From: Alphaproteobacteria bacterium
Lineage (GTDB): Bacteria; Pseudomonadota; Alphaproteobacteria; CALKHQ01
Reading direction: 5' to 3'
DNA: 64,000 nucleotides
Assembly: GCA_965227515.1 (NCBI GenBank)
Contig: CBDDFZ010000001.1
Span: 3,188,797-3,252,796 of the forward strand
Numbering within the stretch: the stretch's first letter is position 1; every line of letters begins with the position of its first letter. Of the stretch, positions 1 to 15,277 are shown piece after piece. A model generated the notes under the pieces. It was not told the DNA's origin. It was given only the letters and a program-made list of their open reading frames with translations, and did no database searches. Made by a program: the position numbers and the translations under genes.

Positions 1-2597
1 GCGAACGGGCCATTGGCCTCGCGCTCGGCAACCAGGTCCTCCATCGCCTGGCGGCCGACGCCCTTGATTGCGCACAGCGCATAGCGGATGGCGGGCTTGC
101 CCCCGGCATCGTTCTCCACCGCGAACGACGTGTGGGAGGCATTGACGTCGGGCGGCAGGATCGCGATGTCCTGGCGCAAGAGCTCGTTGCGATAGCCGGC
201 CAGCTTCTCGGTGTTGCCCATGTCGTGGGTCATCGACGCGGCAAAGAACTCGACCGGATAGTTCGCCTTCAGATAGGCGGTCTGGTAGGCGACCAGGGCA
301 TAGGCCGCCGCGTGGCTCTTGTTGAAGCCGTAGCCGGCGAACTTGTTCACCTGGTCGAAGATGCGCCGCGCGGTGTCCGGCCCCACCTCATTGCGCTTGG
401 CGCCCTCGACGAAGCTCTCCTTCTGGGCATCCATCTCCGCCTGGATCTTCTTGCCCATGGCGCGGCGCAGCAGGTCGGCGTCGCCCAGCGTGTAGCCGGC
501 CAGCACCTGGGCGATCTGCATCACCTGTTCCTGGTAGATCATGATGCCGTGGGTCTCGGCCAGAATAGGCTCCAGGCTGCCATGCATGAAGTCGGGCGCC
601 TCGCGCCCGTGCTTGCGGTTGATGTAGCTCGGGATGTTTTCCATCGGGCCCGGGCGGTAGAGCGCCACGACGGCGATGATGTCCTCGAACCGGTCCGGTT
701 TCAGGCGGCGCAGCACGTCGCGCACGCCGCCGCTTTCCATCTGGAACACGCCGGTTACATCCGCCTTGGTCAGCATCTCGAACGTGTGCCTGTCGTCGAG
801 CGGGATGTGGTCGATGTCGATGGTGGTGCCGCGCGCCGCCAGGATGTCGCACGCTTCGCGAATGACAGTCAGCGTCTTCAGGCCCAGGAAGTCGAACTTC
901 ACCAGCCCGGCCTTCTCGACCAGCTTCATGTTGAACTGGGTCGCCGGCATGTCGGAGCCGGGGTCCTTGTAGAGCGGCACCAGCTCGGTCAGCGGCCGGT
1001 CGCCGATCACCACGCCGGCGGCGTGGGTCGAAGCGTTTCGGAACAGGCCCTCCAGTTGCAGCGCGGTCTCCAGCAGGCGCTTCACCGCCTCTTCCTTGTC
1101 GCGCATCTCCTGCAGCCTGGGCTCGCCCTCGATCGCCTGCTTCAGCGTCACCGGCTTGGCCGGGTTGTAGGGGATCATCTTGGCGATGCGGTCGACCTGG
1201 CCGTACGGCATCTCCAGCACGCGGCCGGCATCGCGCACTACGGCGCGCGCCTCCAGCTTGCCGAAGGTGATGATCTGGGCGACCCGGTCGTGGCCGTACT
1301 TGTCCTGGACGTAGTGGATGACCTCGTCGCGCCGGTCCTTGCAGAAGTCGATGTCGAAGTCGGGCATCGACACGCGCTCGGGGTTCAGGAAGCGCTCGAA
1401 CAGCAGGCCCCAGCGCAGCGGGTCGAGGTCGGTGATGCCCAGCGACCACGCGGCGACGGAGCCGGCGCCGGAACCGCGTCCGGGGCCGACCGGAATGCCC
1501 TGCCCCTTCGCCCACTGGATGAAGTCGGCGACGATCAGGAAGTAGCCTGGGAAGCCCATCTGCACGATGACGTCGAGCTCGTGGACCAGGCGGTCGCGGT
1601 ACGGCTTGGTCCAGTCGCCCTCAGCAGGCTTGTTCTCCGTCCGCGCGATGTCGGCGAGCCGTCGGTCGAGCCCCTGCTCGGCCATGGCGCGCAGCGCGTC
1701 CGCCTCGTCCAGGCCCTCGGCCGACTGGAAGCGCGGCAGGATCGGGTCATGCTCGGTCGGGTAATAGGCGCAGCGCCTGGCGATGACGAGCGTGTTGGCA
1801 ATCGCCTCCGGCAGGTCGGCGAAGGCATAGGCCATCTCCTCGGCCTTGCGGAAACGGTGCTGACGGGTCAGGCGCCGGCGCCTGGTGTCGGAAACGTGGG
1901 TACGGTCGGCGATGCACAACAGCGCGTCGTGCGCCTCGTACATCTCCTGCTCGGCGAAATAGACCTCGTTGGTGGCGACCAGCGGCAGGTCCATGTCATA
2001 GGCCAGCTCGACCAGCCCGTCCTCGATCATCGCCTCCAGGTCGGTGCCGTGTCGGGTGATCTCCATGTAGAGCCGGCCCGGAAACAACGTCGACAGCGAG
2101 GTCGCGAGCTGCCGAGCGCGGTCCTTCTGCCCCTCCGCCAGCGCACGGCCGATGCCGCCGCCAGTGCCGCCGGTGAGCGCGATCAGCCCGTTGGTCCGCC
2201 CCTCCAGCACGCCGTAGCCGTCCAATGACGGGGCTCCGGCGGCGGGGGTCACGTAGCCTTCGCTCACCAGGGACAGCAGGTTCAGGTAGCCCGCCTCGTC
2301 CTGCGCCAGCAACGGCAGCGCCTCGATGCAATGGCCGCCATTGCCGTTGCTGGAATGGCCCTCGCCGGCATGCGAGACCGCGATCGGCAAGGTGCACCCG
2401 ATGATCGGCTGGACCCCGGCCTTCACGGCGGCCAGCGCAAATTCCAGCGCGCCGAATAGATTGCCGTTGTCGGTCACGGCGACGGCCGGCATCGCATCCG
2501 CCGCGCACAGCTTCGGCAGATCGGCGACCTTGATCGCGCCCTCCGTCAGCGAATAGGCAGAGCGGACGCGAAGGTGTACAAACGGGGCGTGGGCCAT
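1..2597 (-). CDS. dnaE: DNA polymerase III alpha subunit, N-terminal 865 aa (C-terminus beyond window edge)
   Basis: Minus-strand translation begins MAHAPFVHLRVRSAYSLTEGAIKV, aligning to the E. coli DnaE N-terminus (MSEPRFVHLRVHSDYS). PHP and polymerase core motifs follow. The plus-strand ORF 132..2228 is a shadow ORF. Confidence 0.9.
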   Translation of the reverse strand, partial: MAHAPFVHLRVRSAYSLTEGAIKVADLPKLCAADAMPAVAVTDNGNLFGALEFALAAVKAGVQPIIGCTLPIAVSHAGEGHSSNGNGGHCIEALPLLAQDEAGYLNLLSLVSEGYVTPAAGAPSLDGYGVLEGRTNGLIALTGGTGGGIGRALAEGQKDRARQLATSLSTLFPGRLYMEITRHGTDLEAMIEDGLVELAYDMDLPLVATNEVYFAEQEMYEAHDALLCIADRTHVSDTRRRRLTRQHRFRKAEEMAYAFADLPEAIANTLVIARRCAYYPTEHDPILPRFQSAEGLDEADALRAMAEQGLDRRLADIARTENKPAEGDWTKPYRDRLVHELDVIVQMGFPGYFLIVADFIQWAKGQGIPVGPGRGSGAGSVAAWSLGITDLDPLRWGLLFERFLNPERVSMPDFDIDFCKDRRDEVIHYVQDKYGHDRVAQIITFGKLEARAVVRDAGRVLEMPYGQVDRIAKMIPYNPAKPVTLKQAIEGEPRLQEMRDKEEAVKRLLETALQLEGLFRNASTHAAGVVIGDRPLTELVPLYKDPGSDMPATQFNMKLVEKAGLVKFDFLGLKTLTVIREACDILAARGTTIDIDHIPLDDRHTFEMLTKADVTGVFQMESGGVRDVLRRLKPDRFEDIIAVVALYRPGPMENIPSYINRKHGREAPDFMHGSLEPILAETHGIMIYQEQVMQIAQVLAGYTLGDADLLRRAMGKKIQAEMDAQKESFVEGAKRNEVGPDTARRIFDQVNKFAGYGFNKSHAAAYALVAYQTAYLKANYPVEFFAASMTHDMGNTEKLAGYRNELLRQDIAILPPDVNASHTSFAVENDAGGKPAIRYALCAIKGVGRQAMEDLVAEREANGPF

Positions 2598-7188: not shown

Positions 7189-7917
7189 ATGATGGTCTCT
7201 ATGGTTTCGGTGAGACGGCGCCTGACGGCAGGTGTGGCGGCGATGGCCATGGTCGCGGGTGCGGCCGGCGCGGCGTGGGCGGCGGACGGTGCGCGGTCGC
7301 AGAGCGCGGCGGCGGTGTCGGTGCAGACGCTCGCCATGGCGCAACGCGTCGCTGCCTATGGCATCGAGACCGGCGACCCGATCCTGCTGATCGCGGCGGC
7401 GCGCATGGCGCGCCCGTTCGAGGTCCGGACATCCGACATCGTGCCGCTGGGCGACACGGCTGAAGCCCAGGGCAAGCCCCTGCCCGCCTCGAGCGACGAA
7501 ATGCTGGAGGTCGCGCGCGAACTGGCCGGCGACCGCGCCGACCTGATCGGCCTGATCGAGGACATCGAGGCCGAAAGCTCGCGCGGCAGCGTCTATGCCG
7601 CCATGCTGGAAGGCCTCGCCGTCGACGGTGCCGCCCTCGGCGCCGGCAGCTACCAGGGCTATATCCAGCCCGGTGCCAAGGCCGAGTTCGCCGATGCCTT
7701 CGTCGGCGGCGAGCCTGCCGTCATCGCGTTGACCGGCGAGGCAACGGCCGACATTTGGTTCCGTGTCGTCGACGACGAAGGCAACGAGCTGTGCATCAGC
7801 GACTTCGCAGCCGACCAGGGCTGCGAGTGGCTGCCGGCCAAGACCATGGAAGTCACCATCATCATCGAGAACGGCAGCAACGCCGACGGCAGCAATTTCA
7901 CCCTGTGGACGAACTGA
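7189..7917 (+). CDS. secreted hypothetical protein (signal peptide)
   Basis: N-terminal RRRLTAGVAAMAMVAGAAGAAWA signal-like segment. No recognisable catalytic motifs. Confidence 0.5.
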   Translation: MMVSMVSVRRRLTAGVAAMAMVAGAAGAAWAADGARSQSAAAVSVQTLAMAQRVAAYGIETGDPILLIAAARMARPFEVRTSDIVPLGDTAEAQGKPLPASSDEMLEVARELAGDRADLIGLIEDIEAESSRGSVYAAMLEGLAVDGAALGAGSYQGYIQPGAKAEFADAFVGGEPAVIALTGEATADIWFRVVDDEGNELCISDFAADQGCEWLPAKTMEVTIIIENGSNADGSNFTLWTN

Positions 7918-8039
7918 CGCCCTGTATCGATTGAGGCGGGCGCGGGGCAAAATCTCGACCGGCGATTGAACCTGCCGTCCGGCGGGCGCGACGTACCTCC
8001 CAACAAGCGGAATTGGCCGCCTTATTGGGAGTTTGGATC

Positions 8040-8414
8040 ATGCGCATCGCCACCCCGGCCCGTGTCACCGCAATTGCTGTCGCCGCAATCGCCACTGTCG
8101 CCAGCGCCGCGACGGCCAGCGCCCAGGACAGCACGCCCTACGATACCTCCCCGCCGGACCGCGTGGCCCCCGTCGGCCCCTCCGGCCCCGACCTGACGCC
8201 GCAGAACATCAGGCCCGTCGTCGGCGATACGGAAATCGTCGTCCCGATCATCATTCTCGGCCCCGCGCCGGGCGATACCGACTTCGAACTCGATGCCATG
8301 CTCGGCGTCGGCCCTCAAGCGCCGGCGGAAGGCGACCATGCGATCCTGGTGGCCGACGACGGCACCTGCTGGGATCTGGACACCTTCTTCCCCGAGCAGG
8401 TGCCCTGCCCGTAA
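8040..8414 (+). CDS. small secreted hypothetical protein
   Basis: Signal peptide MRIATPARVTAIAVAAIATVASAATASA. SD GGGAG lies upstream of the ATG at 8040. The protein is Pro/Asp-rich and ends CP. Confidence 0.45.
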   Translation: MRIATPARVTAIAVAAIATVASAATASAQDSTPYDTSPPDRVAPVGPSGPDLTPQNIRPVVGDTEIVVPIIILGPAPGDTDFELDAMLGVGPQAPAEGDHAILVADDGTCWDLDTFFPEQVPCP

Positions 8415-8426
8415 GCTTGATCGCTA

Positions 8427-8575
8427 AGTCGGCACCGGCCCTCTCCCATATCCATGCGGTCGCGCATCCGCGCTCTCTTTTGGCACCCGGCCACCCACGA
8501 GAGTATCCAGCGGGGTGGCCGGGTGGGGGCGAGGGCTGGCGCAGACTACAGCGTAAGCTGATCCTGATCTAAGTC
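8427..8575. repeat. family A hairpin intergenic repeat, copy 1 (longer variant)
   Basis: It shares TCGGCACCGGCCCTCTCCC...GGCCGGGTGGGGG(A/C)GAGGGCTGGCGCAGA...GCTGATCCTGATCTA with the copies at 23283 and 46441. The internal inverted repeat is CCCTCTCCC / GGGAGAGGG. It overlaps the stop codon of the DMT gene. Confidence 0.8.
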
Positions 8576-9465
8576 TTCCGACCTGATGTCGTGATCAGCA
8601 CCATGCCGGCGACGATCAGCGCCGCGCCGGCCGCGGCCAGCACATCTGGCACCGTGCCGAATAACGCGAAGTCGTAGAGCGCCGCGAACACCAGCGTGAC
8701 GTAGAGGAACGGTGCTACGTAGCTCGCGGTGGCACGGCGCATGGACTGAATGAACAACCACTGCGCCGTGACCATGGCGCCGCCCAGTGCGGCCAACAGC
8801 AGCCATTGCTCTGTCGTCGGCGCGGTCCACACAAACATCGCCGCCGTACATGAGAGGCACGCGCCGATCGTGTTGTTGATCAGCAGGATGCGCAGCGGCG
8901 GCTCGCGGTCGCTCAGCCGCTTGATCAGCACCATCTCCAGGCCCATGAATGCAGCCGCCGCCAGAGCCAGCAGCGCGGCAGGGCGAAATGCCTCGGTCCC
9001 CGGCCGAATCAACACGATGGTGCCGGCGACCGCGATGCCGGCGGCCAGCCACCGGATGGCCGGCACCCGCTCGCGCAGGAACGCCATCGCCAGCGCCATG
9101 GTCACCAGCGGACTGAGGAAACTGATTGCAGTCGCGTCCGACAGGGGGATGCGGGCGGCGGCCGCGAACATGCAGGTCACCCCCAGCCATCCGCAGGCCG
9201 ACCGCCCGGCGTGCACTGTCCATGCTGCACCGGCCAGCGAGGGCCTGCGCCACGCCGCCACGGCGACGAGCACCGCCAGCGCGAACGCGAACCGGCCGGC
9301 ACTGATCTGCAACGGGTGAAGCGGCGGCCCGGCCGTATCCAACCCCAGGGCCTTGGCGATCAGCGTTGTTGCGGCGATCAGGGCGGTGGCCGCCAGCATC
9401 GCCACGACGGCAACGTTCTGTATTGATCGACGACTTGCGCCAGCTTGGATTTGACCAGTTACCAC
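8569..9465 (-). CDS. DMT superfamily (EamA-like) transporter
   Basis: About 10 TM helices in two duplicated EamA-like halves. The start (GTG at 9465 or ATG at 9399) is uncertain. Confidence 0.7.
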   Translation of the reverse strand: MVTGQIQAGASRRSIQNVAVVAMLAATALIAATTLIAKALGLDTAGPPLHPLQISAGRFAFALAVLVAVAAWRRPSLAGAAWTVHAGRSACGWLGVTCMFAAAARIPLSDATAISFLSPLVTMALAMAFLRERVPAIRWLAAGIAVAGTIVLIRPGTEAFRPAALLALAAAAFMGLEMVLIKRLSDREPPLRILLINNTIGACLSCTAAMFVWTAPTTEQWLLLAALGGAMVTAQWLFIQSMRRATASYVAPFLYVTLVFAALYDFALFGTVPDVLAAAGAALIVAGMVLITTSGRKT

Positions 9466-9613
9466 TATGCTACACCGATTCCACGCATCATTGTTGTATT
9501 ATCATCGATTTCGGAGCTAGGTTGTGAGTTGCCATGTGACCGAAATAGCAATTCGATGCTACGTCTAGGACGCTGTGGCCGTTTGGTGCCGGCATTATAT
9601 TGGGAGGTCGTCT

Positions 9614-10966
9614 ATGAACCTAGATAGCGACTATATTGCTCGCGGTGAGAAATCTCGCCTTTTTCCAATTCTGTCGGAAACTTCCAAAGAAGGGCGTTCG
9701 CTTTCAATATTCCTAGCTTGTTTGGCATGCGTGAATGAGTTTGGGGCCGCGTTATTAGCCGACATAGGTCAAAGGATAGGCAAGCGTACATCAATTGCAA
9801 CTTACACTGAAGTCGTATTGCGGAAAGGGGGCGAAAAATTACGTCGACCCGATGGCCTGATAACCTTGTCAACCGGTTCAAGGAAATGGACTGCTCTTGT
9901 CGAGGCCAAAGTTGGGAGCACTGAGCTTTCCTCAGAGCAGCTTGAGGATTATATTGAAATTGCAAAACTAAATCAGATTGATGCGTTGATTACCATATCG
10001 AATCAGTTTGCAGCCCTTCCAACACACCATCCTATTGCCTTATCTGCTAGTACGCGCAAAAAGGTCGACATATATCATTGGTCGTGGATGTATGTTGTTA
10101 CTCAGGCCAGCCTTCTTCTGTCTGATGATAGTATAAATGATCGAGATCAGAAGATAATTTTGAAGGAAATGGTGCGTTTTCTCACCCACCCTAGCGCTGG
10201 TGTGAAGAATTTTGATCAAATGCCTGCTGTGTGGGCCGATGTTGTCAAGAAGATACAATTAGGTGGGGCGATATCGCCAAGTTCTGATGAAGCGAGAGAG
10301 GTTGTCGGGGCTTGGCATCAGGAACTGAGGGACTTAACCCTAATCCTTTCCAGACAGCTTGGTGCAGACGTCGCACTACAAATTTCTCGCGCGCATTCCT
10401 CGGACCCTGTGGCTCGCCAAAAGGCAGGCGTTACGGAGCTTGTTGATAAACTCTGCCTAACGGCGGTCGTCATCGTTCCAGATGCGGCGTCGCCGATTGA
10501 GATATGTGTGGACCTACAGAAGCGATCTGTCTCCGTGTCGATGAAATTGAGGGCTCCGACGGATCGAAAGAGTACTAAGGCGCGAGTAAATTGGTTGCTC
10601 AGACAGCTTCCTGAGGATTGTGGCACAGATGTTCATGTGCGGCTTCTTTGGCCAGGCCGAGCGGCGCATACGCAGTATCCTATTAAGAATTTGCGGGATG
10701 ACCCCGCTCTATCCTCAAATGAGCGAGAAAATCTCGTAGTCTTATCTTTCCAGATCGTACTTATTCGAGATTTGGGTGGCCGCTTTGGACAACGAAAGAA
10801 CTTCATTAAGGAGCTGGAAGCTGCAGTGCCTGACTTTTATGAGTCAGCAGGTCAACACCTCAAACCTTGGCAGGCCCGACCTCCGAAGTTGGCAGAGGAC
10901 AAGACGGGGCCAGAAACTGTCAACCCGGAAGCGATCTACGAAGAGGTGGAGAAGTCCGCAACCTAG
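9614..10966 (+). CDS. hypothetical protein with N-terminal PD-(D/E)xK nuclease-like motif, encoded on a low-GC islet
   Basis: GGGAGG SD 6 nt upstream of the ATG. Motif RRPDGLITLSTGSRKWTALVEAKVG (PD...ExK). Local GC is about 45% against a 67% background. Confidence 0.7.
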   Translation: MNLDSDYIARGEKSRLFPILSETSKEGRSLSIFLACLACVNEFGAALLADIGQRIGKRTSIATYTEVVLRKGGEKLRRPDGLITLSTGSRKWTALVEAKVGSTELSSEQLEDYIEIAKLNQIDALITISNQFAALPTHHPIALSASTRKKVDIYHWSWMYVVTQASLLLSDDSINDRDQKIILKEMVRFLTHPSAGVKNFDQMPAVWADVVKKIQLGGAISPSSDEAREVVGAWHQELRDLTLILSRQLGADVALQISRAHSSDPVARQKAGVTELVDKLCLTAVVIVPDAASPIEICVDLQKRSVSVSMKLRAPTDRKSTKARVNWLLRQLPEDCGTDVHVRLLWPGRAAHTQYPIKNLRDDPALSSNERENLVVLSFQIVLIRDLGGRFGQRKNFIKELEAAVPDFYESAGQHLKPWQARPPKLAEDKTGPETVNPEAIYEEVEKSAT

Positions 10967-10981
10967 CGATGAGCCACTGAA

Positions 10982-12973
10982 TCAGATATCCAGGCTCTCG
11001 GCGTAGGCGGCGTTCTGCTGGATGAAGGCGAGCCGGCGTTCCGGCTTACGGCCCATCAGCGACTCCACCAGCGCGGCCGTGCCCTCCGGCGCCACCACCG
11101 CGTCCTCCACGACAGAAACACGCAGCAGGCTGCGGGTCGCGGGGTCCATGGTGGTCTCGCGCAATTGCTTCGGCGGCATCTCGCCCAGGCCCTTGAAGCG
11201 GCTGATCTCGACCTTGCCGGTACCCTTAAAGTGCTTGGCGATCAGCCGGTCGCGGTCGGCCTCGTCGCGGGCATAGACGGTGTCGCCGCCACGGCTCAGC
11301 CGGTAGAGCGGCGGGATCGCGAGATAGAGGTGCCCGTCCTCGATCAGCTTCGGCATCTCGCGGAAGAAGAAGGTCATCAGCAGGGCTGCGATATGGGCGC
11401 CGTCCACATCGGCGTCGGTCATGATGATCACGCGCTCGTAGCGCAGGTCGTCGCCGCGATAGCCCGCACCGCTGCCGCAGCCGAGCGCCTGGATCAGGTC
11501 GGCCACTTCCTGGTTCTGGCGCAGTTTCTCAGCCGAGGCGCTGGCGACGTTCAGGATCTTGCCGCGCAGGGGCAGAATCGCCTGGGTGTGGCGGTCGCGC
11601 GCCTGCTTGGCCGAACCGCCGGCGCTGTCGCCCTCGACCAGGAAGATCTCGCTGCCCGCCGCCACGTTGGAGGCGCAGTCGGCCAGCTTGCCCGGCAGGC
11701 GCAGCTTGCGCGAGGTCGCGGTCTTGCGCGCCAGTTCGCGCTGCTGGCGGCGGCGCTGGCGCTCCTCCGCACGCTCCAGGGCGTGGGCCAGCAAGGCATT
11801 GGCGGTGGCGGTGTCGCTGGCGATCCAGTGGTCGAAATGATCCTTAATCGCGGCATCGACCAGGCGCACCGCGCCCGGCATCGCCAGCCGCTCCTTGGTC
11901 TGGCCCTGGAATTGCGGGTCGCGGATGAACAGCGACAGCAGCACATGCGCCCCATCGACGATGTCCTCGGTGGCGATCTGGCCGCCGCGCTTGTTGCCGA
12001 CCAGCTCGGCATAGCCGCGCAGCCCCTTGGTCAGCGCGTTGCGCAGGCCCTGCTCGTGGCTGCCGCCCTGGGGCGTCGGCACCGTGTTGCAGTAGGAGCG
12101 CAGCGCGCCGTCCTGGTCCAGCGGCCAGGCGATGGCCCATTCGACCTTGCCCTGCCCCTCGCCCAGCTCCACGGCGCCCGAGAACGGCGTGCCGGTAACC
12201 TGCTGGCGGTCGCCGAGTGTGGCGGCCAGGAAGTCCGCCAATCCGCCCGGGAAATGCAGGGTCGCTTCGGCGGGCGTGCGGCTGCCGTCGTCCAGCAGCG
12301 CCGAGTCGCAGGTCCAGCGGATCTCGACGCCCCGGTGCAGATACGCCTTGGAGCGCGCCATCTCATAGAGGCGCTGCGGCTTCAGGGACTGGGGGCCGAA
12401 GATCGCCGGGTCGGGGCGAAAGCGCACCAGCGTGCCGCGGCGGTTGTTGACCGCGCCCTTGTCCTGCAGCGGCCCGGTCGGCACGCCCTGGCGGAACGAC
12501 TGGGTCCACAGACGGCGGTCCCGCGCGACCTCCATCTCCAGCTCTTCCGACAACGCATTCACCACTGAGAGGCCGACGCCGTGCAGTCCGCCCGCGGTGG
12601 CGTAGGCCTTGCCGCCGAACTTGCCGCCGGAATGCAGCGTGGTGAGGATCACCTCCAGCGCCGACTTGTCAGGGAACTTCGGATGCGGGTCGACCGGAAT
12701 ACCGCGCCCGTTGTCGCGCACCGTGACCGCGCCGTCGGCGGCGAGGTCGATGGCGATCCAACTGGCGTGGCCGGCCACCGCCTCGTCCATCGCGTTGTCG
12801 AGAAGCTCGGCGACCAGGTGATGCAGCGCGCGCTCGTCGGTGCCGCCGATGTACATGCCCGGCCGGCGGCGGACCGGCTCCAGCCCCTCCAGAACCTCGA
12901 TGTCCTGGGCGGTGTAGTCGGTGTCCCGCGCGGTGGCGGAGCCGAACAGGTCGGCAGCTTCGGCATTGCTCAT
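10982..12973 (-). CDS. parE: DNA topoisomerase IV subunit B
   Basis: N-terminus MSNAEAADLFGS...EVLEGLEPVRRRPGMYIGGTD with GHKL ATPase, TOPRIM and EGDSAGG motifs. At about 664 aa it lacks the GyrB insertion. The ORF-track extension to 13435 is upstream read-through. Confidence 0.8.
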   Translation of the reverse strand: MSNAEAADLFGSATARDTDYTAQDIEVLEGLEPVRRRPGMYIGGTDERALHHLVAELLDNAMDEAVAGHASWIAIDLAADGAVTVRDNGRGIPVDPHPKFPDKSALEVILTTLHSGGKFGGKAYATAGGLHGVGLSVVNALSEELEMEVARDRRLWTQSFRQGVPTGPLQDKGAVNNRRGTLVRFRPDPAIFGPQSLKPQRLYEMARSKAYLHRGVEIRWTCDSALLDDGSRTPAEATLHFPGGLADFLAATLGDRQQVTGTPFSGAVELGEGQGKVEWAIAWPLDQDGALRSYCNTVPTPQGGSHEQGLRNALTKGLRGYAELVGNKRGGQIATEDIVDGAHVLLSLFIRDPQFQGQTKERLAMPGAVRLVDAAIKDHFDHWIASDTATANALLAHALERAEERQRRRQQRELARKTATSRKLRLPGKLADCASNVAAGSEIFLVEGDSAGGSAKQARDRHTQAILPLRGKILNVASASAEKLRQNQEVADLIQALGCGSGAGYRGDDLRYERVIIMTDADVDGAHIAALLMTFFFREMPKLIEDGHLYLAIPPLYRLSRGGDTVYARDEADRDRLIAKHFKGTGKVEISRFKGLGEMPPKQLRETTMDPATRSLLRVSVVEDAVVAPEGTAALVESLMGRKPERRLAFIQQNAAYAESLDI

Positions 12974-13091
12974 GGCCGCGTTATAGGCACGCGACTCACG
13001 GCGCGGCAAGCGGGGCGATGGCAGCGGCGCTGCGCCATTGATCCCGCCGGTCGGTACCGCGACAATGCGTGGAACAGTCTTGAGGAAACAT

Positions 13092-13493
13092 ATGCCGGAC
13101 AAACCGTCCCAGTCGCCCGGCGACGGCCCGCGCGGCCAGCTCGCCACCCAGACCATCGCCATGCCGGCGGACACCAACCCGTCCGGCGACATCTTCGGCG
13201 GCTGGCTGCTCAGCCAGATGGACCTGGGCGGCGCCGTGGTGGCGCGCGAGCGTGCCGGCGGCCGGATCGCCACCGTGGCCATCGACTCGATGACCTTCCG
13301 CCGCCCGGTGCATGTCGGCGACCTGGTGAGCTGCCATGCCGAGGTCATCAAGGTCGGGCGGACCTCGATCCGCGTGGCGGTGGAGGCCTGGGCAACGCGC
13401 GCCAACGGTGTGCGCGACCTCGTCACCCAGGGCACCTATACCTATGTCGCCATCGACGAGGATCGCCAACCCCGGGTGATTGGGCCAAGGTGA
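13092..13493 (+). CDS. acyl-CoA thioesterase (YciA-like hotdog fold)
   Basis: TIAMPADTNPSGDIFGGWLLSQMD motif. The start is taken at MPDKPSQ. Confidence 0.75.
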   Translation: MPDKPSQSPGDGPRGQLATQTIAMPADTNPSGDIFGGWLLSQMDLGGAVVARERAGGRIATVAIDSMTFRRPVHVGDLVSCHAEVIKVGRTSIRVAVEAWATRANGVRDLVTQGTYTYVAIDEDRQPRVIGPR

Positions 13494-13558
13494 TCTGCCC
13501 CGCCCCCTGCCCCTGACCCCTTCCCTGCCCACCGACAACCCTTCGAACAGGAACCGAC

Positions 13559-13861
13559 ATGATCAGACACATGGTTTGCGTGCGCTATCGCAGCGACGTG
13601 ACGGACGCACAAGTACGTGACATCCAGCAGGCGCTGGCGGCGCTGAAGGACCGCATCGGCGGCTTTCAATCCATTGAATTCATGAGTAATTTGAGCCCGG
13701 AGGGCATGGACCACGGGTTCAGCGAGGGCTTCCTGATCACCTTCGACGGCGTTGCCGCCCGCGATGCCTATCTGGCAGACAGTGAGCACGCGAAGGCCGG
13801 CGAGAAGCTGGTCGCGGCGGCAGAGGGCGGAAAGGATGGCATCTTTGTCTTCGATTTCTAA
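13559..13861 (+). CDS. Dabb (stress-responsive dimeric alpha/beta barrel) family protein
   Basis: 100 aa with an MIRHMVCVRYRSDVTDAQV...GFLITFDGVAARDAYL pattern. Confidence 0.65.
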   Translation: MIRHMVCVRYRSDVTDAQVRDIQQALAALKDRIGGFQSIEFMSNLSPEGMDHGFSEGFLITFDGVAARDAYLADSEHAKAGEKLVAAAEGGKDGIFVFDF

Positions 13862-14228
13862 GGCGCTGAGTGCTGTGGTCGTGGCGGCGGCGCTGGCCGT
13901 GCCGTCGTCGCTGGCCCTGGCCGGCGAAGCCGACGTGGTGGCGGTGGAAGCGCACATGACGGCACCCGGCGTCTACCGCTTCGACGTGTCGGTGCGCCAT
14001 GACGACACCGGCTGGGACCACTACGCCAACGCCTGGGAGGTGGTGGCGCCCGACGGCACCGTGCTCGGCACCCGCGAGCTGCTGCACCCGCACGAAAACG
14101 AGCAGCCCTTCACCCGCTCGCTCTCCGGCGTCGAAATCCCCGACGACATCGCCACGGTCACCGTGCGTGCCGTCGACAGCGTGCACGACCGCGGCGGCGC
14201 CGAAATGTCGGTGGACCTGCCGCGCTAG
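13836..14228 (+). CDS. secreted hypothetical protein
   Basis: Signal peptide MASLSSISKALSAVVVAAALAVPSSLALA. It overlaps the 3' end of the Dabb gene by 26 nt in a different frame. Confidence 0.5.
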   Translation: MASLSSISKALSAVVVAAALAVPSSLALAGEADVVAVEAHMTAPGVYRFDVSVRHDDTGWDHYANAWEVVAPDGTVLGTRELLHPHENEQPFTRSLSGVEIPDDIATVTVRAVDSVHDRGGAEMSVDLPR

Positions 14229-14302
14229 CATCCTGGATATGCGTCAGTCGCATGGGTAATGCCGCCGCGATGTGCTACGCAGCACGCAGCGGGAGGGGCC
14301 TC

Positions 14303-15277
14303 ATGCGCATCGTATTCCACGGATTGTTCGCCACCAGCTTTGCCGACGGCATGGCCGACGTGCTGCCATCTGGCGCCGAGGTCGCTTGCCTGCCGGACGA
14401 TCTCGCGTCGGATGCCGACCGCGCAACCTATGCCGCGGCCGAGGTCATCGTCTCACCGGTGTTCAAGGAGAGCTTCCCGCGCCCCGATGGGCTGAAGCTG
14501 TTCCACATTCCCGGCGCCGGTTTCGATGGGGTGGCGTTCGATGCGCTGCCGCCGGACGCGGTGGTCTGCAACTGCTTCGGCCACGAGGATGCGATGGCCG
14601 AGTACGTGATGGCGACGCTGCTGGCGCGCACGATACCATTCGCTGAGGCAGACCGCGACCTGCGCCAGGGCGTGTGGACCCATCGCTCCGGCCCCATCGA
14701 AACGCTGCACGGCGAACTCGGCAGCCAGACCATGGGGCTGCTCGGCTACGGCCACATCGGCAAGGCGGTGGCGGTGCGGGCTAAGGCGTTCGGCATGCAG
14801 GTGCACGTCGCCAATCGCAGCCCGGTCGCCCCGTCGGATGTGGTGGACACGGCATTCGGCCTCGACCGTCTGGACGAGTTCCTGGGCTCGGTCGACGTGG
14901 TTGTGGTCAGCGTGCCGCTGGTGCCGGAGACCGAGGGCCTTGTCGACGCGGCCGCGCTGGCGACCATGCGGCCGAACGCCGTGCTGATCAACGTCGCGCG
15001 CGGCCCGGTGGTGGACGAGAACGCGCTCTACGCGGCGCTACGGGACAACCGGATCGGCGGCGCGATCATCGACACCTGGTATCGCTATCCCACCGCCGAC
15101 ACGCCGCAGCCGTTGCCGTCGACCGCCCCGCTGCACGAGCTTCCCAATATACTGATGACGCCCCATATGTCGGGATGGACACAGGGCATGCGCGCGCGGC
15201 GGCAGCGCGTTATTGCGGACAATGTTGCGCGGCGCTTCGTGGGCGAGCTGTGCATCAATCGGATCTGGCCCCGGTAG
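14303..15277 (+). CDS. D-isomer-specific 2-hydroxyacid dehydrogenase family, NAD-binding
   Basis: GLLGYGHIGKAVAVRAKAFGMQV Rossmann motif. The start is taken at MRIVFHG. Confidence 0.75.
   Translation: MRIVFHGLFATSFADGMADVLPSGAEVACLPDDLASDADRATYAAAEVIVSPVFKESFPRPDGLKLFHIPGAGFDGVAFDALPPDAVVCNCFGHEDAMAEYVMATLLARTIPFAEADRDLRQGVWTHRSGPIETLHGELGSQTMGLLGYGHIGKAVAVRAKAFGMQVHVANRSPVAPSDVVDTAFGLDRLDEFLGSVDVVVVSVPLVPETEGLVDAAALATMRPNAVLINVARGPVVDENALYAALRDNRIGGAIIDTWYRYPTADTPQPLPSTAPLHELPNILMTPHMSGWTQGMRARRQRVIADNVARRFVGELCINRIWPR

Follow-up and report, generated by a model that had tools for sequence, protein, structure and literature searches.

Within a 64,000-nucleotide (nt) stretch of the genome of an uncultured alphaproteobacterium (GenBank assembly GCA_965227515.1, contig CBDDFZ010000001.1, 4.07 Mb long; the whole stretch is referred to here as the window), a single gene of low G+C content (GC) lies between a gene for an EamA/DMT transporter and parE. 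Its product, a protein of 450 amino acids (aa), joins a predicted PD-(D/E)xK nuclease domain at its N-terminus to a C-terminal domain with the predicted fold of type III secretion chaperones and YbjN proteins, and belongs to a large and almost entirely unannotated family. The features of the locus, in window positions, are as follows, with the basis of each assignment in brackets.

8569 to 9405, minus strand: gene for an EamA/DMT transporter, the left flank (Pfam EamA, E 3e-30; candidate starts and GC boundary)
9410 to 10990, no strand: islet of low GC that forms a cassette of a single gene, foreign in composition (fine GC profile, window-wide GC distribution and a meta-profile of 54 loci)
9466 to 9613, plus strand: DNA of low GC upstream of the gene, moving together with it (sequence, and the 54-locus meta-profile, in which 250 nt upstream fall within the trough)
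9614 to 10966, plus strand: gene for the 450-aa predicted nuclease, stop codon included (open reading frame, or ORF; 100% identity to P0001, 450 aa; start aligned with homologues)
9614 to 10123, plus strand: PD-(D/E)xK restriction-endonuclease-like nuclease domain, residues 1-170 (predicted fold)
9851 to 9910, plus strand: predicted catalytic motif of D80 (9851-9853), E97 (9902-9904) and K99 (9908-9910) (codon positions; invariance in alignments A1, A2 and A6)
10124 to 10378, plus strand: acidic helical linker domain, residues 171-255 (secondary structure, conservation and a mean isoelectric point, pI, of 5.0)
10379 to 10849, plus strand: basic C-terminal domain with a type III secretion chaperone/YbjN-like fold, residues 256-412 (predicted fold)
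10850 to 10963, plus strand: low-confidence acidic tail, residues 413-450 (predicted local distance difference test score, pLDDT, of 51-68; tail alignment and charge)
10982 to 12973, minus strand: parE, encoding topoisomerase IV subunit B (663 aa), the right flank (ORF and start; Pfam domains of P0271)

The low-GC islet and its single gene

When GC is followed in 40-nt windows, the islet is approximately 1.57 kb long, with edges near 9410 and 10990. Viewed in 300-nt windows, GC stands at 0.71-0.74 over 9000-9450, drops to 0.43-0.54 over 9450-10950 and recovers to 0.65-0.70 past 10950. The gene itself has a GC of 0.489, compared with 0.661 and 0.675 in the 5-kb flanks, and a GC at third codon positions of 0.467, compared with 0.911 in parE. 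Across the 64 kb, 1350-nt windows have a mean GC of 0.659 with a standard deviation of 0.031; the minimum of 0.48 falls in the islet, nearly six standard deviations from the mean, and the next lowest value elsewhere is 0.61, making this the sole such trough in the window. A preliminary description of the same DNA had noticed a drop in GC across exactly one gene, convergent with parE and with background composition on both sides, and these measurements confirm it.

The same description gave the length of the protein as 451 aa, which is one residue too many. While the longest ORF (9575-10966, plus strand) would encode 463 aa from a GTG, the ATG at 9614 sits 7 nt past a Shine-Dalgarno sequence, GGGAGG (9602-9607), and both this spacing and the alignment with the N-termini of homologues place the start at ATG 9614 rather than at GTG 9575, yielding the 450 aa of P0001. 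The ORF is intact and its Shine-Dalgarno sequence strong. The low-GC region at 9466-9613 presumably holds the promoter of the gene; no sigma-70 consensus was found upstream of it. An interrupted palindrome (ATCGATTTCGG ... CCGAAATAGCAATTCGAT) lies at approximately 9504-9557, in the low-GC DNA upstream of the gene, and may serve as an operator or form a stem-loop; it has no counterpart in the upstream regions of homologues.

No repeats of note flank the islet, no tRNA gene is adjacent to it, and a Pfam scan of neighbouring genes in the window revealed neither a methyltransferase nor an integrase. A 13-nt direct repeat was considered as a cassette end and rejected, as it lies inside the DMT and parE coding sequences and off the GC boundaries. 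The reported lack of a methyltransferase, an integrase and flanking direct repeats was thus upheld by the neighbour scan, the repeat search and the loci of the family. A classical Type II restriction-modification pair was rejected because there is no adjacent cognate methyltransferase, either at the window locus or as a conserved partner family-wide, and an insertion sequence (IS) or integrative element was rejected on account of the lack of an integrase among the scanned flanking genes, the lack of significant terminal repeats and the presence of one copy per locus.

Homologous loci repeat this arrangement. The difference in GC between gene and flanks, taken over 80 loci, has a median of -0.061 and extends down to -0.167, and a meta-profile of the 54 loci with at least 6 kb of sequence on both sides places the trough over the gene, the 250 nt before it and fewer than 250 nt after it, with background GC beyond. 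All-against-all clustering of the ORFs within 6 kb of the 80 loci revealed no conserved neighbour, the largest cluster comprising 7 loci from related genomes. Direct and inverted repeats at the cassette ends of 74 loci were no longer than those in shuffled controls (8.9 versus 8.3 and 8.5 versus 8.3, respectively), and each locus holds one copy of the gene. The view of a solitary, compositionally foreign gene with no partner is therefore upheld by GC and by neighbour clustering, and its horizontal acquisition as a single gene is supported by foreign composition and by the one-gene trough of the meta-profile. The islet is accordingly best described as a recent horizontal one-gene cassette, made up of the gene and approximately 200 nt of its own upstream DNA.

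In the Lysobacterales locus L026, a 24-nt element (CAGCCCGCGTAGGATGCGGTGAGG) that looks like a REP-type intergenic sequence occurs at 9761, 11378 and 11728 and brackets the homologue; as a multi-copy REP-like element, it was rejected as a cassette end. Neither a LexA box nor any shared upstream motif was found across the family, whose upstream regions have no k-mer in common beyond the Shine-Dalgarno sequence.

Predicted domains and their relation to known proteins

An AlphaFold model of the 450-aa protein, built from 31 sequences, has a mean pLDDT of 86.8. In this model the N-terminal domain has the alpha-beta-beta-beta-alpha-beta core fold of the PD-(D/E)xK superfamily, with D80 as the conserved acidic residue on strand 2 and E97 and K99 forming the (D/E)-x-K on strand 3, and by predicted fold and motif the protein belongs to that superfamily. 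The signature RRPDGLITLSTGSRKWTALVEAKVG, on which the preliminary description had based its nuclease assignment, is present, and its reading as PD-x16-EAK with D80, E97 and K99 is correct; the N-terminal nuclease fold is likewise borne out by the model and by fold comparisons, the matches of which include Card1, Cap4, McrC and others. Foldseek searches against viral models (BFVD) returned only PD-(D/E)XK, Mrr-like and restriction-endonuclease entries, all domain-level echoes.

No substitution of D80, E97 or K99 occurs in 110 family members, some as little as approximately 30% identical, or in 26 relatives fused to a TerD domain (described below), so the PD..ExK residues singled out earlier are indeed conserved among homologues. 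Y113, H155, W158 and W207 are likewise invariant in the 110 members, while P79, G81 and N130, which flank the triad, are invariant together with it across more than 130 diverse sequences. The invariance of the triad points to an active site under selection, and the protein is probably an active DNA-cutting enzyme, judging by its sequence and predicted structure.

The acidic linker (residues 171-255) contains the invariant W207 and a conserved motif, RFL-H-S-G-V..F..M..W. Modelled alone, residues 256-412 reach a pLDDT of 89.7 and are predicted to form an alpha-beta3-alpha-beta2-alpha two-layer fold, matches to which are almost exclusively type III secretion class I chaperones and YbjN-family proteins (YscB, Spa15, ShcA, InvB, Tll0839 and DUF2170 among them). 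Since no nuclease occurs among these matches, the C-terminal domain is not a second nuclease domain. It is basic across the family, with a mean pI of 9.6. The statement that the C-terminal 350 or so residues resemble nothing recognisable thus holds for sequence, where no match was found, and fails for structure, where the predicted fold is recognisably chaperone/YbjN-like. The acidic tail comes after a conserved W-x3-(A/P)P(K/R)(L/I) motif. C-terminal extensions of 100-170 aa occur in members P0125, P0174, P0220, P0222 and P0223, and one of the 61 members scanned with Pfam and PADLOC (the subset of the 110-sequence alignment used for all such family-level scans) carries GYF_2 (Pfam E 1e-6), a proline-rich-peptide binding module.

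Sequence libraries offered little beyond this. The window protein has no meaningful match in Pfam (E<=1), PADLOC, NCBIfam or PHROGs, and no relative with a solved structure was found in the PDB by sequence or by profile. Weak Pfam matches to PDDEXK_4 and VRR_NUC (E approximately 0.004) occur in two of the 61 members each; weak matches to OAS1 and CtlX were at chance level, and these were rejected as relatives.

Comparison with characterized systems places the protein near several of them and inside none of their sequence models. In nucleases of the Mrr/AF1548/NucS type (among them the AspBHI, MspJI, FokI, Can2, Card1 and Cap4 nuclease domains), the PD-(D/E)xK core is folded in the same way, strands 2 and 3 bearing the catalytic D...E-x-K, and these proteins likewise couple the nuclease, within one chain, to a distinct domain for recognition or sensing. 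Unlike the curated PD-(D/E)xK families, however, the window protein has no match to Mrr_cat (nor does any of the 61 members) or to another sequence model, and the domain joined to its nuclease differs from winged-helix, SRA, CARF and SAVED domains. Mrr-type Type IV enzymes are, as here, encoded by a solitary gene without a cognate methyltransferase, but Mrr has its DNA-binding domain at the N-terminus and its nuclease at the C-terminus, whereas the nuclease is N-terminal in the window protein. Shedu (SduA, DUF4263) and other single-gene defence proteins likewise combine one PD-(D/E)xK domain with a regulatory region and need no partner gene; the present family differs from Shedu in having no SduA/DUF4263 match (Pfam and PADLOC, for the protein and the members), in its domain order and in showing no defence-island enrichment. 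The Shedu/Mrr-like label proposed earlier therefore has to be withdrawn, as the protein is a member of neither group by any sequence model. PvuRts1I and AbaSI also pair an N-terminal PD-(D/E)xK-type nuclease with a C-terminal recognition domain in the product of a solitary gene, but the C-terminal fold here is chaperone-like and not SRA-like.

The C-terminal domain, for its part, is alike in fold to the type III secretion class I chaperones (SicP, CesT, SrcA, ExsC, SycN/YscB) and to the YbjN family (AmyR, DR_1245, Tll0839). In contrast to these proteins, the fold is here fused to a nuclease, has no Pfam CesT/YbjN match, lies in no secretion-system context and has a pI of approximately 9.6, whereas type III secretion chaperones are small acidic dimers. 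The combination of a nuclease with a secretion-chaperone/YbjN-like domain is undescribed in the literature searched, in which no account of this family or architecture was found; an earlier mention in a 2012 comparative analysis of Ter systems (Anantharaman, Iyer, Aravind) is possible.

Family distribution, gene neighbourhoods and flanking genes

Although the preliminary description took the gene for an orphan, a large protein collection contains more than 1000 homologues (approximately 455 aa, 50-63% identity), nearly all labelled "hypothetical", and an exhaustive profile search returned 2083 clusters at 50% identity, 712 of them at E<1e-30, which refutes orphan status. The clusters are almost all full-length, at 430-500 aa. 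A pattern scan of one genome per species identified the family in at least 404 of 185,579 species, the count being a lower bound. Carriers belong to the Alpha-, Beta- and Gammaproteobacteria, Thermodesulfobacteriota, Dadabacteria, Rhodothermales and Acidimicrobiales, and one Dehalococcoidia member occurs among the homologues; the distribution is patchy and crosses at least seven phyla.

The preliminary description had raised the possibility that homologues sit in defence islands. This is not the case for the 139 immediate neighbours examined in 80 genomes, a comparison made without a formal control set: only a handful match defence models (PADLOC), methyltransferase matches are confined to one or two, and two of the 139 are integrases. 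The position of the gene is stable within genera, for example at the Thermodesulfobacteriota, Nisaea and Neomegalonema loci. Individual loci vary in setting. The context of L092 includes an IS fragment and ParD, and the homologue of L094 lies on the edge of an island with integrase, methylase and SNF2 genes. In L083 a gene for a HicB-like antitoxin (9618-9899) precedes the homologue by 100 nt in the same orientation, an arrangement not seen at other loci. In L095 (Coralloluteibacterium, 8400-14631) the genes on either side of the homologue encode an AAA ATPase of 494 aa and an HD-CE/HATPase_c_3 protein of 1028 aa, a neighbourhood that may be a conflict-system setting.

A more distant branch of the family emerged from tblastn searches against plasmids, in which 11 Streptomyces and Rhodococcus plasmids were found to carry a gene annotated "TerD family protein" whose product matches 90-95% of the query at approximately 30% identity. 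These proteins, of 660-680 aa, consist of an N-terminal TerD domain (Pfam E 1e-47), a proline-rich linker and the whole nuclease-linker-chaperone-like module, in which PD...E-x-K is intact. Compared with TerD stress proteins as they are annotated ("TerD family protein", "Stress response protein SCP2"), the actinobacterial homologues are 30% identical to the window protein over 95% of its length, but the nuclease module goes unannotated in the TerD records, and the window protein has no TerD domain. The label "Stress response protein" on some proteobacterial homologues stems from the TerD domain of these actinobacterial relatives. There is no ter operon in the window or around the TerD-fused homologues.

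The plasmid copies of the TerD-fused gene have no conserved partner and reside in accessory regions with RES-type toxins, ThiF/MPN/DUF6602 genes, radical-SAM/dTMP-kinase/MazG genes and polymorphic toxins. On two Rhodococcus plasmids (L084, 4540-5999, and L089, 8515-9789) a RES-family NAD+ phosphorylase toxin gene and a partner gene lie 0.2-1.3 kb from the TerD-fused homologue, and both the ThiF/MPN/DUF6602 cluster of L084 and the radical-SAM/dTMP-kinase/MazG-like cluster of L085 resemble known conflict systems.

At the window locus, the longest ORF of the DMT gene begins at GTG 9465, with alternative starts at ATG 9399 and GTG 9405. Given the GC boundary near 9410, the gene likely starts at 9399 or 9405 and not at 9465, and if this is so, the native promoter region of the transporter has been displaced by the foreign cassette. 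On the other side, ParE (P0271) has the Pfam domains HATPase_c, DNA_gyraseB, Toprim and DNA_gyraseB_C, and parE is convergent with the nuclease gene, the two stop codons being 15 nt apart. No relative of the window ParE was found at 90% identity or above. In the three nearest relatives (L086, L087 and L088, with ParE 75-77% identical), the nuclease gene and the DMT gene are both absent beside parE, which is followed downstream by genes for a DEAD-box helicase, an AsnC-type protein and an SDR; as synteny breaks at the 3' side of parE, this absence does not amount to a clean empty site. A divergent gene for a 4HBT thioesterase upstream of parE is kept in L086 and L088 and not in L087 (window 10982-13493 compared). 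Two adjacent ORFs on the plus strand (7189-7917 and 8013-8414; 242 and 133 aa) have products whose N-termini are rich in alanine and resemble signal peptides, and neither product matches Pfam; both ORFs are situated between genes for a TPR protein and the DMT transporter, in a segment that differs from the nearest relatives. A further ORF with no Pfam match (132-2228, plus strand) would encode 698 aa and may be either a real gene or a shadow ORF of this high-GC genome.

Possible roles and significance

The reading we favour, while holding it somewhat short of probable, is that of an endonuclease gated by a signal and directed at invading DNA, or else employed in abortive infection. It is based on repeated lateral acquisition, patchiness, partner-free architecture and the connection of Ter systems with phage inhibition, Ter operons being linked to phage inhibition and stress (PMC8123226). 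The protein would act as a self-contained nuclease against invading DNA, by direct attack or through abortive infection, with no partner gene needed. Its N-terminal domain, as fold and invariance suggest, would carry out metal-dependent DNA cleavage at D80-E97-x-K99. Type III secretion chaperones and YbjN proteins are dimeric ligand-binding modules; the C-terminal domain may similarly dimerise the protein, pairing two nuclease domains for double-strand cleavage, and may serve as a regulatory or recognition module that binds a protein or peptide signal or, by virtue of its basic charge, nucleic acid. The acidic linker and the acidic tail may keep the enzyme off until it is triggered. Fusion to TerD, a calcium-binding stress-sensing domain of ter systems, would suggest that the module is a gated effector and not a constitutive enzyme. 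The occurrence of some copies next to toxin-antitoxin, IS, integrase or conflict-type genes was also counted in favour of defence.

A defence role for the window protein is plausible, and anti-phage function stays a hypothesis, because the protein is no member of Shedu or Mrr, lies in no defence-island setting and has a TerD-fused branch with native composition in a core context. It is possible, if doubtful, that the family represents an unrecognised single-gene immune or abortive-infection system in which a chaperone-like sensor of a phage or plasmid protein or peptide switches the fused nuclease, a TerD sensor having been added in Actinobacteria; on such a reading, the family would have escaped discovery because it travels as a lone 1.6-kb cassette that enters ordinary chromosomal sites and not defence islands.

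Several observations weigh against a defensive function. None of the 61 members has a PADLOC v2 defence-model match, and no homologue was found in 50,697 phage records, which leaves no evidence of arms-race exchange. Most of the 139 immediate neighbours have metabolic or housekeeping functions (ThiC, 3-hydroxyacyl-CoA dehydrogenase, GNAT, GST, exonuclease VII and others), and the wider Pfam-annotated contexts of L081, L083 and L093 are housekeeping as well. With 50-60% identity between phyla, the sequences are unusually conserved for an immune gene. Dozens of species of Nocardia, Rhodococcus and Prescottella belong to the TerD-fused branch, with 79-96% identity and the gene mostly on chromosomes; in Nocardia farcinica the gene is found among core genes (cmk-der ... 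peptidase M3 - gene - ECF, or extracytoplasmic function, sigma factor), and the TerD-fused copies have no GC anomaly and are compositionally native. Such native composition and core context are unlike those of a typical defence gene.

Much of this counts in favour of the main rival, a stress-response or DNA-processing nuclease. Its substrate would be the DNA of its own cell, handled in repair, recombination or damage processing when the cell meets envelope, ion or chemical stress; the TerD-fused actinobacterial form would be ancestral and native, and the proteobacterial copies would be laterally spread accessory versions with the same housekeeping-type function. The widespread, chromosomal and compositionally native TerD branch of the Nocardiaceae, the mostly housekeeping neighbours of the stand-alone form, the high sequence conservation and the retention of gene position within genera all agree with it, and YbjN-family proteins are tied to stress phenotypes (PMC3181261). 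The rival fits poorly, however, with a distribution as patchy as at least 404 of 185,579 species, with repeated acquisition as a foreign one-gene cassette and with the lack of the nuclease gene from the parE region of the three nearest relatives; no LexA/SOS box or shared upstream regulatory motif accompanies the gene, and association with repair genes is limited to exonuclease VII (2 of 139 neighbours). On balance we consider it rather doubtful. We rate as unlikely a solitary, Type IV-like modification-dependent endonuclease that would be active at all times and would spare the unmodified genome of its host. In the domain order of PvuRts1I and AbaSI, its basic C-terminal domain would read modified bases while the N-terminal nuclease cuts nearby. 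Single-gene horizontal spread is typical of Type IV enzymes and is seen here, no methyltransferase partner exists in the window or the family, and the C-terminal domain is consistently basic, with its mean pI of 9.6. Nevertheless, the fold of that domain matches chaperones and YbjN proteins rather than SRA, winged-helix or other known readers of modified bases, neither Mrr_cat nor any other restriction-enzyme Pfam model is matched, PADLOC gives no match although it includes Type IV models, and the TerD fusion and acidic tail suggest a gating that Type IV enzymes do not need.

The cassette structure itself invites a different explanation, namely a selfish, self-mobilising element whose nuclease promotes its own recombinase-free insertion in a homing-like or recombination-promoting manner. 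The foreign unit of one gene and 250 nt upstream at dozens of unrelated chromosomal sites, the scarcity of integrases (2 of 139 immediate neighbours) and the tight packing between host genes, as in the 15 nt that separate the stop codon from that of parE, would all be expected of such an element. Set against this, there is no conserved insertion target or neighbour, terminal repeats are at the level of shuffled controls with no conserved end motifs, each locus has one copy whose position is stable within genera, and the TerD branch bears no sign of mobility, making this explanation very improbable. Least credible of all is a catalytically dead protein that merely keeps the fold as a non-nuclease scaffold or regulator. 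Proteins of the PD-(D/E)xK fold do at times take on roles without catalysis, but nothing specific speaks for this here, and the invariance of D80, E97, K99, P79, G81 and N130 across more than 130 sequences is what an active site predicts.

Whichever role applies, this is a family of more than 2000 clusters in at least seven phyla for which Pfam, NCBIfam, PADLOC and PHROGs offer no model and the PDB no structure; its actinobacterial members are mislabelled after an accessory TerD domain. If the favoured reading of a gated defence nuclease holds and the protein is immune in function, methods that rely on association with defence islands miss systems that travel alone, and a new sensor fold would be added to those found among nuclease effectors. 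If it is instead a stress or DNA-processing enzyme, the long-enigmatic Ter/TerD systems would gain a concrete DNA-cutting effector. Either way, the gene provides a tidy case of single-gene horizontal transfer without visible mobility machinery, repeated in dozens of genomes.

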